In this document: one piece after another, positions 1-3,624 of the stretch
Layout of the letters: each line of letters starts with the position of its first letter
Position numbering within the stretch: the stretch's first letter is position 1
Virus record (IMG/VR): IMGVR_UViG_2565956629_000003
DNA from: a virus
Lineage: Duplodnaviria > Heunggongvirae > Uroviricota > Caudoviricetes
Strand: one strand, 5' to 3'
DNA: 14,030 nucleotides
Position numbers and translations under genes: made by a program
The notes under the pieces: generated by a model
Seen by the model: the letters and a program-made list of their open reading frames with translations, nothing else
Told to the model about the DNA's origin: nothing
The model's database searches: none

Positions 1-255
1 TTAGCTGATGCGAAAGCTGAAAATGATGCTCTTCGGCGCAAGCTTGATAATGGTGGTCGGGTGTTCGTCAAAGGAAAATGCCCTGTGCCAACCTCAGCCG
101 AAGCCTCCAGCGCCTCCGGCATGGGCAATGATGCCACCGTCGAACTCTCTCCAGTTGCTGGACGAAACGTTCTCGGTATCCGGGACGGAATCATCAGCGA
201 CCAAACAGCACTGAGAACGCTTCAGGAATACATCAGGACGCAATGCCTTCGATGA
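1..255 (+). CDS. Rz: i-spanin Rz, 3' portion (5' end lies outside the window)
   Basis: Frame 1 is open from base 1 to TGA at 253-255. Translation LADAKAENDALRRKLDNGGRVFVKGKCPVPTSAEASSASG...LRTLQEYIRTQCLR resembles the C-terminal part of lambda Rz as I recall it (LADAKAENDAL...). An Rz1-like ORF is embedded in another frame. Confidence 0.8.
   Translation, partial: LADAKAENDALRRKLDNGGRVFVKGKCPVPTSAEASSASGMGNDATVELSPVAGRNVLGIRDGIISDQTALRTLQEYIRTQCLR
8..214 (+). CDS. Rz1: o-spanin Rz1 (outer-membrane lipoprotein) embedded within Rz
   Basis: ATG at 8. Product MRKLKMMLFGASLIMVVGCSSKENALCQPQPKPPAPPAWAMMPP... has a signal peptide with a lipobox-like VVGC followed by a proline-rich segment, and a lambda Rz1-like N-terminus (M-KLKMML). 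Fully nested in the Rz reading frame region. Confidence 0.8.
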   Translation: MRKLKMMLFGASLIMVVGCSSKENALCQPQPKPPAPPAWAMMPPSNSLQLLDETFSVSGTESSATKQH

Positions 256-455
256 TAGCGATAATTTTACTCATCATCCTTCACATCTGGCTCTGTAGAC
301 AGGGTGGTGATCACTTCTGGAGTGAATCCAGATTAAATATCTCATTGCTGATGCTTGATATTGAGCATCTTGCGCGCGGTAAGGGGCTGCGTTGGGATAA
401 GAGCCAGTCATTACAAATACCAGGATTTAGCCTCGCATTCGCGGGGCTTTTGTAA
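243..455 (+). CDS. hypothetical small membrane protein (orphan ORF between spanin genes and cos)
   Basis: ATG at 243 (second in-frame ATG at 252) with AGGA 4-5 nt upstream. 70 aa with a hydrophobic N-terminal segment IAIILLIILHIWL. Hairpin plus T-tract overlaps its stop codon. Uses several rare codons (ATA, AGA, TTA). No homolog recognised. Confidence 0.3.
   Translation: MPSMIAIILLIILHIWLCRQGGDHFWSESRLNISLLMLDIEHLARGKGLRWDKSQSLQIPGFSLAFAGLL
430..452 (+). terminator. putative rho-independent terminator
   Basis: Stem gcctcgc (430-436), loop attc, stem gcggggc (441-447) giving 7 bp with one G-U pair, followed by TTTT (448-451). Confidence 0.35.
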
Positions 456-813
456 TGGCTTATACCCTACACGGGATAACTTAACTGATATCCCTTTTAA
501 CGGATAAAGGTATTCAAGCCTGACACATCATGCGCTGTATCGTCGCCGTATTCCCGTATTAACAGAGACCGTAGCCCGACGGGGAACTCCTTCTGCGCGA
601 GTGTGCGGGAATAATCAAAAACGATGCACACCGGGTTTTTACCGCGTTTATGGTTCGCGGGTTTGTCCCTCATGCTCGCCAGTCCTGTGCGGGGGTGGAA
701 GAAACAGGACACTCACACAGATTCTTGTGGGCACGATGCTATTCCTTTCTGGATTATCCCGATGCCATTCATGCAGGGCGCTGTATCAGACGTTCGTCAT
801 GGCTGTCAGGCTG

Positions 814-861
814 ACGGGTCCTCCCGGTGGGGTGGCCTGCCACGGGGCGGGAGCGTCGCGG
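814..861. other. cos site: cosQ-like element (814-829) and cosN with predicted 12-nt cohesive end GGGCGGGAGCGT (845-856)
   Basis: ACGGGTCCTCCCGGTG ... ACG GGGCGGGAGCGT CGCGG closely resembles the lambda cos junction as I recall it (ACGGGTCCTTTCCGGTG...TTACG GGGCGGCGACCT CGCGGG). It lies about 170 bp upstream of the terminase small-subunit start, as in lambda. Confidence 0.55.
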
Positions 862-874
862 AAAAAGGCTAGTT

Positions 875-977
875 TTTGCATTTTTATTGGCCACCATCAT
901 CTTTGCATCTTATTGATTATTAATGGTTATTTGTTTTTTGCATGTCGAATTGAGTGTTTTTTGTTCGACATCGAACG
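875..977. repeat. putative cosB: three direct TTTGCAT repeats and an 8-bp inverted repeat in an AT-rich tract
   Basis: TTTGCAT at 875-881, 902-908 and 937-943. Perfect inverted repeat ATGTCGAA (942-949) / TTCGACAT (964-971). Position between cosN and the small terminase gene mirrors the R3-I1-R2-R1 layout of lambda cosB. Confidence 0.35.
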
Positions 978-1030
978 CGTTTTCTTAAAGTTGTTCGCAC
1001 GATGCATGTTTAAAGCTCTCCGGAGGAAAT

Positions 1031-1522
1031 ATGGATCATGAGTTGAAAAACCTGGTGCTGAATATTAATCAACTGGCGGCTTTATCTGGTCTGCACCGCC
1101 AGACTGTCGTGGCAAGACTGAAAAACATTCGTCCCGCTGGTGGACATGACAAACTCAAGCTATACCGGTTGACCGATATTCTGACTGAATTTATGGGGTT
1201 ACCACCGCCGGTTGCTGAGGGCGAAATGGATCCACATGAACGCAAAGCCTGGTATCAGTCTGAACGTGAGCGTCTTAAGTTCGAACAGGAAACGGCACAA
1301 CTCATTCCGGCCAGTGATGTCAGACGGGAGTTTGCCATCTGGGCAAAAGCGGTCGTGCAGGTGCTGGAGACATTACCGGATATTCTTGAACGTGACTGCG
1401 GTCTGCAGCCTGCCGCTGTGAGCCGTGTTCAGTTCATTATTGATGATCTGCGCGATCAGATAGCCCTGCGGGTGACTGAAGCAGGTGCGGATGATGAGGA
1501 GGAATTACAGCAGGAGGAGTAA
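1031..1522 (+). CDS. terminase small subunit (N-terminal HTH DNA-binding region, acidic C-terminus)
   Basis: ATG at 1031 preceded by GGAGG (1022-1026). Stop TAA overlaps the large-subunit ATG (TAATG). 163 aa; N-terminal segment NINQLAALSGLHRQTVVARLKN looks like a helix-turn-helix; acidic tail DDEEELQQEE. Sits immediately downstream of cos and upstream of the large terminase. Confidence 0.8.
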   Translation: MDHELKNLVLNINQLAALSGLHRQTVVARLKNIRPAGGHDKLKLYRLTDILTEFMGLPPPVAEGEMDPHERKAWYQSERERLKFEQETAQLIPASDVRREFAIWAKAVVQVLETLPDILERDCGLQPAAVSRVQFIIDDLRDQIALRVTEAGADDEEELQQEE

Positions 1523-3624
1523 TGCTGAATCAGGAAACCGCAAAGGCAGCACGAACCGATTCAGGTTATATCCTTCGAGCACCGAGACGAATGCGGGTTG
1601 CTGATGCCGTTGCTCAGTATATGCGGGTGCCCATGGGGGCAGGGAACTCAGTCCCGTGGGATCCGCTGGTGGCACCGTATGTTATTGAGCCGATGAACTG
1701 CCTGGCCTCGCGTGAATACGACGCAGTGATATTTGTTGGCCCGGCACGAACCGGCAAGACTATCGGCCTGATTGACGGCTGGGTGATTTACAACGTGATT
1801 TGCGATCCTGCTGATATGCTGATCATTCAGATGACGGAGGAAAAAGCCCGCGAACACTCCAAAAAACGACTCGCCAGAACGTTTCGCGTCAGCCCGGAAG
1901 TGGTCAGTCGCCTGAGTCCGAACAAAAATGACAACAACGTTTATGACAGAACATTCCTTGCTGGCAACTACCTGAAAATCGGCTGGCCGTCAGTCAATAT
2001 CATGTCCTCATCAGATTATAAATGCGTCGCGCTGACGGATTATGACCGTTTTCCGGAAGATATTGATGGCGAGGGGGATGCCTTCTCTCTTGCCTCAAAA
2101 CGTACCACCACATTTATGTCCAGCGGTATGACGCTGGTGGAGAGTTCCCCCGGCAGGGATGTGAAGGATGTGAAATGGCGACGGACTTCACCGCATGAGG
2201 CTCCACCAACCACGGGGATCCTGTCGCTCTATAACCGTGGTGATCGCCGTCGCTGGTACTGGCCCTGTCCACACTGTGGTGAGTATTTTCAGCCCTGCGG
2301 CGATGTGGTTGCTGGTTTCCGTGATATTGCCGATCCCGTGCTGGCAAGTGAGGCGGCTTATATTCAGTGTCCTTCCTGTTCAGGACGGATTATGCCTGAA
2401 CAAAAACGTGAGCTGAACGGACGTGGGGTCTGGTTGCGGGATGGTGAATCCATCAATGCGGATGGCAGTCGTTATGGTGATCCCCGACGCTCACGTATTG
2501 CGTCATTCTGGATGGAGGGTCCGGCAGCTGCTTACCAGACACTCTCGCAACTCGTTTACAAACTGCTTACTGCAGAACAGGAATACGAGACAACCGGAAG
2601 TGAAGAAACACTCAAGACGGTTATCAATACCGACTGGGGATTACCTTATCTTCCCCGCGCCAGCATGGAGCAACGAAAAAGTGAACTGCTTGAGCAGCGG
2701 GCAGAGCCAGTTCTTTCCCGCAGTGTGCCGGATGGCGTTAATTTCCTTGTGGCGACAGTGGATGTGCAGGCGGGACGTCATCGCCGTTTTGTGGTTCAGG
2801 TAACGGGCTATGGCAGCCGTGGCGAACGCTGGATTATTGATCGTTACAACATCACGCAGTCATTGCGCGGTGACAGCGACGGGGAGAGCCAGCGAATTGA
2901 TCCGGCCAGCTATCCGGAAGACTGGGATGTCCTGCTGACGGATGTTTTTCATAAAAGCTGGCCGCTGGCCTCCAATCCTTCTCAACAAATGCGACTGATG
3001 GCAATGGCGGTGGACTCCGGCGGTGAAGACGGGGTCACTGATAATGCCTATAAATTCTGGCGTCGTTGCCGTCGTGATGGCCTTGGTAAACGTATTTACC
3101 TGTTTAAGGGCGACAGCATCCGGCGCGCAAAACTGATCACCCGTACATTCCCTGATAACACCGGACGAACGGGCCGACGGGCGCAGGCCGCAGGTGATGT
3201 GCCGCTCTGGCTTCTTCAGACGGATGCCCTGAAAGACCGGGTGAATAACGCGTTATGGCGTGACTCGCCAGGTCCCGGCTATGTGCATTTCCCTGACTGG
3301 CTGGGGAGCTGGTTTTACGACGAACTGACGTATGAAGAGCGGAGCAGTGACGGGAAATGGAGTAAGCCGGGGCGCGGTGCCAACGAAGCTTTTGACCTGA
3401 TGGTGTATGCCGAGGCTCTGGTCATTCTGCATGGATACGAAAAGATCCGCTGGCCGGATGCACCGGAGTGGGCGAGCCGGGAAACCTGGCTGGAGTGTGT
3501 CCCGGACAGTACCGAACCGTCACCCACACCGGAACCTGTATCCACGCCTGTTAAAAAACAAAAACGGAAGAAAACAGTAACTGACGATGTTAACCCCTGG
3601 CTGACTTCCGGAGGATGGTTATGA
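1522..3624 (+). CDS. terminase large subunit (lambda gpA family)
   Basis: 700-aa ORF. P-loop GPARTGKT (about 1737-1760). Cys motifs CPHCGEYF and CPSCSG comparable to lambda gpA CPHCGEE. Synteny with small terminase upstream and gpW/portal downstream. Confidence 0.93.
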   Translation: MLNQETAKAARTDSGYILRAPRRMRVADAVAQYMRVPMGAGNSVPWDPLVAPYVIEPMNCLASREYDAVIFVGPARTGKTIGLIDGWVIYNVICDPADMLIIQMTEEKAREHSKKRLARTFRVSPEVVSRLSPNKNDNNVYDRTFLAGNYLKIGWPSVNIMSSSDYKCVALTDYDRFPEDIDGEGDAFSLASKRTTTFMSSGMTLVESSPGRDVKDVKWRRTSPHEAPPTTGILSLYNRGDRRRWYWPCPHCGEYFQPCGDVVAGFRDIADPVLASEAAYIQCPSCSGRIMPEQKRELNGRGVWLRDGESINADGSRYGDPRRSRIASFWMEGPAAAYQTLSQLVYKLLTAEQEYETTGSEETLKTVINTDWGLPYLPRASMEQRKSELLEQRAEPVLSRSVPDGVNFLVATVDVQAGRHRRFVVQVTGYGSRGERWIIDRYNITQSLRGDSDGESQRIDPASYPEDWDVLLTDVFHKSWPLASNPSQQMRLMAMAVDSGGEDGVTDNAYKFWRRCRRDGLGKRIYLFKGDSIRRAKLITRTFPDNTGRTGRRAQAAGDVPLWLLQTDALKDRVNNALWRDSPGPGYVHFPDWLGSWFYDELTYEERSSDGKWSKPGRGANEAFDLMVYAEALVILHGYEKIRWPDAPEWASRETWLECVPDSTEPSPTPEPVSTPVKKQKRKKTVTDDVNPWLTSGGWL

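Follow-up and report, generated by a model that had tools for sequence, protein, structure and literature searches.

The window analysed here is a 14,030-nucleotide stretch of a tailed phage genome (Caudoviricetes; IMG/VR record IMGVR_UViG_2565956629_000003). Behind the Rz gene of its lysis cassette lies an open reading frame (ORF) of 70 codons (243..455, + strand; ATG at 243, TAA at 453-455) that a sequence-only reading had described as an orphan small membrane-protein gene without recognisable similarity. Sequence comparison identifies this ORF as a member of a known, long annotated but uncharacterised family of 45- to 50-residue proteins, whose defining stop codon is mutated in the window. 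We lean, with moderate confidence, towards the view that the family encodes a real, late-expressed small membrane peptide that would act through its transmembrane helix as an accessory to lysis or phage release.

Profile search aligned residues 1-50 of the ORF with positions 1-50 of the 50 positions of PHROG 11822 (E 1.1e-37). This family corresponds to gene 65 of phage Sf6 (AAQ12250.1), to ECs0822 of prophage Sp3 of O157 Sakai and to RefSeq protein WP_001139679.1, which is the copy found in an O157:H7 genome; the record of Sf6 gene 65 itself bears the remark 'similar to prophage Sp3 ECs0822'. Furthermore, a 50-residue hypothetical protein is annotated at the position of the ORF in PhiR40_1, Ayreon, mEp460, epsilon34 (gene 67), g341c and Sf6. 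The full-length match, together with the annotation in Sf6, epsilon34 and mEp460, refutes the description of the ORF as an orphan.

Of 5426 complete E. coli genomes, 1961 (36%) contain DNA matching window positions 225-470, nearly always under a 'hypothetical protein' feature adjoining an Rz 'lysis protein'. Plaque-forming phages with the ORF DNA include HK620, Sf6 and mEp460, and among model phages the gene is carried by Sf6, HK620, epsilon34 and CUS-3. Homologues of 45 residues in Klebsiella, Raoultella and Kluyvera share 44-58% protein identity with the E. coli form and align with it with zero indels. Conserved across the family are ...FILLSIWLCR in the N-terminal part, one Trp residue, and ...EHPARGKGLR at the C-terminus, ahead of the TGA. 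The family is narrow: when 1.84 billion representative proteins were searched with its profile, only 28 clusters were recovered, and none linked it to a larger or named family. Pfam, NCBIfam and PADLOC scans of the 70-residue and the 45/50-residue forms gave nothing usable, and literature searches on the family, its locus tags and small proteins of lysis cassettes found no functional study of it.

Members of the family run for 45-50 codons and end in ...KGLR and TGA. The window copy has TGG at 393..395 (+) where alignment with relatives places the TGA, and continues to 455; this substitution therefore accounts for a 20-codon extension of the ORF. Among the first 302 loci that we collected, TGG occurs at this site only in L001, an identical E. 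coli locus, and the TGA stop is present in 139 of 141 copies retrieved through their 3' untranslated region (UTR). Judged by alignment, codons 51-70 are former 3' UTR that is read through after the stop-codon mutation. They comprise two conserved boxes, GATAAGAGCC and CATTACAAA (396..417, +; codons 52-59 here), which are kept from the E. coli to the Kluyvera copies, plus one arm of the terminator described below. Disruption of the frame in close relatives, proposed earlier as a test of the gene, was thus found for codons 51-70 and was not found for codons 1-50.

Alignment also showed that the window lacks 40 nt present in most relatives, the junction of this deletion lying at 451..452. The deletion removed a hairpin, CATTACAAAAG-CCACTC..GAGTGG-CTTTGATAATGG, an intact version of which lies at 1950-1995 of locus L002. 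Among the matches listed, the three best E. coli ones (H31-H33, 99.9-100% identity) align with the window in one piece and the others in two. Compared with PHROG 11822 and Sf6 gene 65, the window ORF occupies the same position directly after Rz/Rz1 and is followed by the same 3' UTR boxes, but it has TGG for TGA, encodes 70 residues instead of 50 and has lost 40 nt of its 3' region. On this comparison, the length of 70 residues is peculiar to the lineage of the window. The 20-residue tail covers the GLR that would otherwise form the C-terminus and may compromise function, and the window copy is probably an impaired family member.

In L001, the segment 1743-1892, equivalent to window 243-392, is labelled by RefSeq (Prokaryotic Genome Annotation Pipeline, PGAP) as a pseudogene, 'lysis system i-spanin subunit Rz, incomplete'; elsewhere the feature is named 'hypothetical protein'. 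The pseudogene label probably results from the lost stop codon. Taken at its word, it would make the ORF the remnant of a second i-spanin (Rz) gene, and the N-terminal hydrophobic segments of the two proteins are indeed loosely alike (8/19 identities). We consider this origin highly improbable: BLASTP of the ORF against the adjacent Rz gave E = 6, neither PF03245 nor any Rz-like PHROG matched at E <= 10, other genomes call the ORF a hypothetical protein, and the ORF also lies behind spanins unrelated to Rz.

Several non-genic ORFs of approximately 70 codons occur within the first 2 kb of the window, so that the case for a gene must rest on comparison with relatives. A first set of selection statistics, computed on loci retrieved by protein patterns, was discounted as biased. 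Because such retrieval inflates synonymous change, the samples were re-anchored on non-coding 3' sequence only. When copies were anchored on the hairpin, 103 of 109 had an intact 50-codon ORF, one carried a nonsense mutation and five had lost the stop; in all 32 copies with an indel, this lay within the 28-nt spacer behind the stop codon, and in none did it lie in the ORF. Anchoring on the 3' UTR gave a concordant picture, with all 45 codons open in 139 of 141 copies.

Changes were then counted on a minimum spanning tree built from the 65 sequences that are unique among these 141 copies. Over the first 15 codons past the Rz stop (258..302, +), which encode the N-terminal hydrophobic, transmembrane block, synonymous events numbered 24, where 10.6 were expected (p = 7e-6). 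The three codon positions of this block had 10, 5 and 24 events, respectively; the signal was absent from the other two sense frames and much weaker in the antisense frames. In the wider sample, Ile10 is encoded by ATC, ATA or ATT and Arg14 by CGA, AGA, CGG or AGG. The N-terminal block is thus under purifying selection, and clear protein-level constraint was seen only there. A test of stop avoidance on a minimum spanning tree was uninformative. AlphaFold2 predicted one long helix, with a predicted local distance difference test (pLDDT) score of 66.5 overall and 81-83 over residues 1-20. In our reading, a hydrophobic N-terminal helix would be under selection as a translated product, and the remainder would tolerate change at the protein level. 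The sequence-only reading had held it equally possible that the ORF is not a gene; its length alone is indeed within chance, and the comparative data make a real gene most likely.

The 3' end of the ORF merges with RNA structure. A terminator-like hairpin with a T-run, AGCCTCGC-ATTC-GCGGGGCT (429..452, +; 8 pairs, 6 of them G-C, loop of 4), was found as described earlier, with its stem at 429-448 followed by TTTTGT. The run counts 4 T here versus 5-6 in relatives, since the 40-nt deletion abuts it. A check of conservation showed the hairpin to be kept in relatives, the same terminator following the ORF in E. coli-type and in some Klebsiella-type copies. An outer stem, CAUUACAAA/UUUGUAAUG, encloses it by pairing 409-417 with 449-457; the deletion leaves CATTACAAA (409-417) free to pair with TTTGTAATG (449-457) around the remaining terminator.

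Two kinds of hairpin follow the ORF in the family. The first is this terminator, GCCTCGC-loop-GCGGGGC with T5-6, which is kept in the window. The second lacks a U-tract and is bounded by conserved sequences, CATTACAG...CGATAATG. In most E. coli relatives the two stand in tandem, and it is the second that was deleted from the window. The stem of the second hairpin covaries strongly, with 8 compensatory pairs, a value reached in 0 of 500 shuffles. We had considered the ORF and this hairpin as one RNA module, an idea that was dropped once the hairpin turned out to be dispersed over many gene ends: a pattern scan revealed 110 copies in at least 50 upstream contexts, and 102 of these copies had no copy of this peptide ORF upstream. 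Dispersed as it is at gene ends, the second hairpin is therefore not specific to this gene.

Copies of the dispersed stem-loop, with flanks of the form CATTACAG[AG]AG...CTTCGATAATG, are scattered over enterobacterial phage contigs (loci L305-L424; for example, L305 3492-3529). A long same-strand frame ends 0-30 nt upstream in 78 of the 110 copies, and no Rfam match was obtained where the element was scanned (L005, L218 and L219). The element may mark gene ends or boundaries in general.

Structure was also predicted within the ORF. RNAalifold, applied to 29 diverged copies, predicted 53 pairs that were 98% paired across copies, compared to 30-46% in slid controls. Two helices in the 5' half show two compensatory pairs each, which probably stem from few independent events. 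Those of the 3' half are ATCTCA/TGAGAT, which holds the stop codon, GCTGG..GCTCG/TGAGC..CCGGC and CGCRGY/GCTGCG. The window RNA folds into corresponding helices (z = -2.97 versus shuffled sequences), with the first closing as AUCUCAU/GGGAU because of the TGG change, and a Klebsiella copy gave z = -1.73. Rfam covariance models run over the module in the window and four related loci yielded nothing near threshold. The structured 3' half probably governs translation or the transcript 3' end; since the structure was derived from the same sequences, the evidence for it is suggestive and short of decisive.

An unlikely alternative of some weight, and the main rival of the peptide reading, is that the conserved unit works chiefly as RNA where the lysis transcript ends, as a structured segment with a terminator or stabiliser hairpin serving 3'-end formation, processing or control of downstream expression, with the frame either incidental or a short translated leader. 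The pairing in the 29 copies, 12 compensatory pairs in all, the absence of a coding signal from codons 16-45 and the folding of the window RNA beyond shuffled sequences would all agree with such an element. Yet 8 of the 12 compensatory pairs belong to the 3' hairpin that follows at least 50 other gene ends, and the helices within the ORF depend on a small number of independent changes, in a structure derived from the very sequences on which it was judged; the lack of an Rfam family and the modest z of the Klebsiella copy also speak against it. Moreover, RNA structure leaves unexplained the frame-specific synonymous excess of the N-terminal block, with its third > first > second codon-position pattern. 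Nor would it account for a Shine-Dalgarno sequence and ATG kept behind non-homologous genes, or for an ORF that is free of indels even in its hypervariable middle while the 3' UTR has many.

Several observations nonetheless weigh against a selected membrane peptide with a role in lysis. The remaining 30 codons showed no amino-acid-level constraint, with synonymous events of 13 versus 11.9 and 14 versus 15.6 expected, and pairwise ratios of nonsynonymous to synonymous substitution over the whole ORF ranged from 0.15 to 0.94 (0.36-0.94 when one near-identical pair is excluded). Conservation of the 3' half of the ORF extends to synonymous sites and runs past the stop codon, and the helices of this half vary solely through one-sided, wobble-compatible changes. 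Much of the conservation of the ORF could thus reside at the RNA level. Nonsense and stop-loss alleles occur naturally (1 and 5 of the 109 hairpin-anchored copies, and the window itself), and the hydrophobic stretch is short in the 45-residue form, where 13 residues precede an Arg. Literature searches gave no expression, localisation or phenotype data, with no hits for ECs0822 or WP_001139679 and only papers on unrelated phages for Sf6 gp65, and it is from a single property, the position of the gene, that a role in lysis is inferred.

That position is highly regular. The ORF is the last gene of the lysis cassette, co-directional with the upstream gene and abutting or overlapping it, both in the window and behind four types of upstream gene. 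In loci L222 and L005 it directly follows Rz (PF03245), and in L218 it directly follows a DUF2514 / PHROG 312 i-spanin with an embedded o-spanin. In L219 it comes after a PHROG 1026/1275 spanin pair and then a 73-residue gene, which it overlaps as TAATG, and in L220 it comes after a 58-residue, two-helix protein of PHROG 8494. Holin and endolysin genes of differing families lie upstream of the copies, and packaging genes lie downstream, sometimes beyond genes without known function. Although their flanks are non-homologous, diverged copies have GAGGT or AGGTGA 4-6 nt 5' of the ATG.

In E. coli phages, homology to the window often starts at 220, behind a different type of Rz, and ends at 417 or at 451-454. 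These breakpoints indicate that the ORF and its short 3' region act as a discrete mosaic unit. They would also fit a frame open by chance in a spacer that has spread recently, is conserved neutrally and is a mere recombination junction between lysis and packaging genes, and such an origin would be in keeping with the frequency of 70-codon ORFs here and with E. coli copies at least 95% identical, among which an intact frame alone says little. We regard it as quite improbable, as frame, length and stop are kept at approximately 65% nucleotide identity across genera, the N-terminal block bears a coding signature and the translation signals are conserved.

Several loci show how these cassettes have been rearranged. 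In the Salmonella phage SEN22 (L095 281-1428 and 1450-1650), an insertion sequence separates Rz from the ORF copy, which has thereby lost approximately its first nine codons. In two Klebsiella phages (L094 1200-1600 and L096 1000-2230), ORF copies adjoin residual pieces resembling Rz1 and a further spanin pair of another kind; one copy is without its N-terminal part, and in one a stop has replaced Glu at codon 41 (counted in the 50-codon reading). This arrangement suggests repeated cassette replacement with the ORF left behind. The ORF stands behind the 58-residue PHROG 8494 protein in L220 (1031-1207) and also in L232, L235, L244, L258 and L272; the L220-type cassette has no recognisable spanin between endolysin and ORF. 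In L219, an Rfam match to the small RNA STnc100 (600-800; 53.4 bits versus a gathering score of 47) lies upstream of the holin genes. In Sf6 (L304), a 'bsq7 boundary sequence' is annotated inside the Rz gene at 845-892, which shows that conserved mosaic-junction sequences here were already noted by earlier annotators.

According to the reading that we favour, a late-expressed accessory membrane peptide, the normal product would have 45-50 residues, with a transmembrane helix that terminates in ...IWLCR, then a variable linker holding the conserved Trp, and finally the basic residues ...ARGKGLR at the C-terminus. Its gene would share a transcript from the late promoter with the holin, endolysin and spanin genes, and its translation would depend either on a Shine-Dalgarno sequence of its own or on reinitiation where the upstream gene stops. 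The peptide would be made late and insert in the inner membrane, where its helix, by analogy with other small membrane proteins, may act on the membrane itself or on a membrane protein, tuning lysis or phage release. That the gene is tied to no one family of holin, endolysin or spanin speaks for a target that is generic or lies on the side of the host. The nucleotide conservation of the 3' half would reflect mRNA structure involved in translation control, stability or 3'-end formation, and the protein of the window allele would carry the 20-residue tail from the former 3' UTR.

A bolder proposal, which we hold to be rather unlikely, is that of a dual-purpose unit, in which a spanin-coupled transmembrane peptide and the structured 3' half would together set the expression boundary between lysis and packaging or give a final membrane 'push'. 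Such a unit would be an unrecognised fifth component of the lysis cassette, independent of the holin, endolysin or spanin family.

The immediate surroundings of the ORF were largely as first described. The window starts inside the Rz i-spanin gene, the 3' part of which spans 1..255 (+; stop TGA at 253-255); its full-length counterpart in L001 (1288..1755) matches Pfam PF03245 (E 7.7e-30) and PHROG 13 (E 6e-74). The ORF listing shows the Rz1 o-spanin gene, encoding a lipoprotein with lipobox VVGC, embedded in Rz at 8..214 (+), and an equivalent Rz1-type ORF is embedded at 1508..1714 in Klebsiella locus L005. Upstream in L001, the cassette comprises a holin gene (essD-like), a DUF1327 gene, a lysozyme gene and then Rz. 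The mEp460 linear genome ends at about window 1005, which places cos downstream of the ORF, so that the ORF lies between the spanin genes and cos, as had been stated.

The 70-codon ORF overlaps the Rz stop by 13 nt, and a Shine-Dalgarno-like AGGA (235..238, +) lies 4 nt 5' of its ATG. An alternative start, the ATG at 252..254 (+), overlaps the Rz stop as ATGA, a termination-reinitiation layout also found at the R/Rz junction; it would yield a product of 47 residues ancestrally and 67 residues in the window. Gene callers chose this ATG on 853 contigs (P0032), and the Klebsiella-type ATG aligns no more than two codons away from it. The N-terminus is strongly hydrophobic (Kyte-Doolittle mean of 2.95 over 15 residues from residue 4, and of 2.07 over 19 residues), in agreement with the predicted transmembrane segment. 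Behind it (303..392, +) lie the variable linker with its conserved Trp, which is invariant in two alignments of copies, and the C-terminal ...ARGKGLR block, which is conserved at the nucleotide level. Six of the 70 codons are rare (ATA three times, AGA twice and GGA once), as previously remarked.

Three other signals overlap or follow the ORF. A TTG-started ORF of 50 codons in the +1 frame (355-507, +) overlaps its 3' half; a stretch of it, RAVRGCV(E/G)IRA, is conserved in Salmonella and Klebsiella copies because the underlying DNA is. Its synonymous excess is marginal (20 versus 13.2 expected, p 0.02, in one of 12 tests) and was taken as not significant. The segment 736-1041 (+), in the same frame as an ORF at 601..1041, is annotated as 'putative late gene regulator' in Ayreon and as hypothetical in PhiR40_1; it spans the end of the mEp460 genome (~1005, cos) and is therefore probably no real gene. 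A sub-threshold Rfam match to ST7-OT4_3, a human long non-coding RNA region, at 673-965 (+; 26 bits versus a gathering score of 50), which was also seen in L002, is almost certainly due to chance.

Lysis by phages of Gram-negative bacteria is usually described in terms of holin, endolysin and spanin. The gene described here has stayed last in the cassette with spanins of at least three unrelated families ahead of it, and more than a third of the complete E. coli genomes contain its DNA, at the frequency given above. Should it modulate lysis or release, a widespread and easily testable component would be added to the textbook pathway; should it be mainly RNA, it would mark a conserved transcript-boundary element. 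In either case, the family combines a coding signature confined to the helix with conservation at the RNA level. The 70-residue 'protein' of the window calls for caution, being a read-through artefact of one point mutation: the orphan finding is largely explained away, and what stands behind it is a widespread family found in model phages.

The sequence-only reading had likened the ORF to an accessory (moron) gene. It resembles a moron in being a small extra gene at a module boundary with a terminator-like hairpin behind it, and the hairpin at 429-448 with its T-run does provide a downstream terminator of its own. It differs in that a crude consensus scan of both strands, run on window 1..1200 and relatives and thus on three versions of the module, found no sigma-70-like promoter site, and in that its translation is coupled to the preceding gene. 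For these two reasons it is probably not a classic moron. Of the accessory membrane-peptide gene proposed at the outset, a real, lysis-linked small membrane peptide stands as most likely; what finds no support is its undescribed status, given Sf6 gene 65, ECs0822 and PHROG 11822, and its identity as a classic moron.

The same slot between Rz and cos is occupied by bor in lambda and by borD in DLP12, the latter serving for the comparison. The lambda bor gene has its own promoter and is expressed in lysogens. In this slot, bor lies on the opposite strand and encodes a lipoprotein of 97 residues by coordinates, whereas the present ORF is co-directional and Rz-coupled, has no lipobox and shows no similarity to Bor. 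Bor was accordingly rejected as an identity, with no Pfam or NCBIfam match and the ORF on the Rz strand; the residues before Cys18 (IWL) presumably do not fit the lipobox pattern. Catalogued holins and antiholins were likewise set aside, with no holin Pfam or PHROG match, and the Pfam and NCBIfam scans gave no homology to a known type I toxin family (Hok/Gef, Ldr, TisB and others). No family among the PADLOC anti-phage defence profiles matched the ORF at E <= 10.

HokW of the Stx2 prophage Sp5 (HokW/SokW) is an inner-membrane peptide that raises phage release approximately two-fold (PMC8621323). Like HokW, the product of our ORF would be a prophage-encoded hydrophobic inner-membrane peptide of approximately 50 residues. 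HokW thus offers a precedent of a release-aiding peptide for the reading that we favour and also for a further alternative, a type-I-toxin-like module in which a hydrophobic toxic peptide, restrained in its translation by a structured mRNA and possibly by an antisense RNA, would aid host killing or lysis. The size of the ORF, a hydrophobic helix as its sole constrained part and a heavily structured mRNA fit such a module. We nevertheless judge it improbable: there is no Pfam match at all and hence none to Hok/Gef, no antisense RNA or own promoter was detected by the crude consensus scan of both strands in the three module versions, and the ORF, unlike HokW, always sits co-directionally in a late lysis operon with coupled translation and never as a stand-alone locus.

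Small proteins that act through a transmembrane helix are exemplified by phiX174 E. Our ORF has no sequence similarity to E and accompanies a complete holin-endolysin-spanin set instead of mediating single-gene lysis. The likeness to proteins of the E type lies in the distribution of constraint, as only the N-terminal transmembrane segment of the ORF is constrained as protein, and its basic remainder is tolerant.

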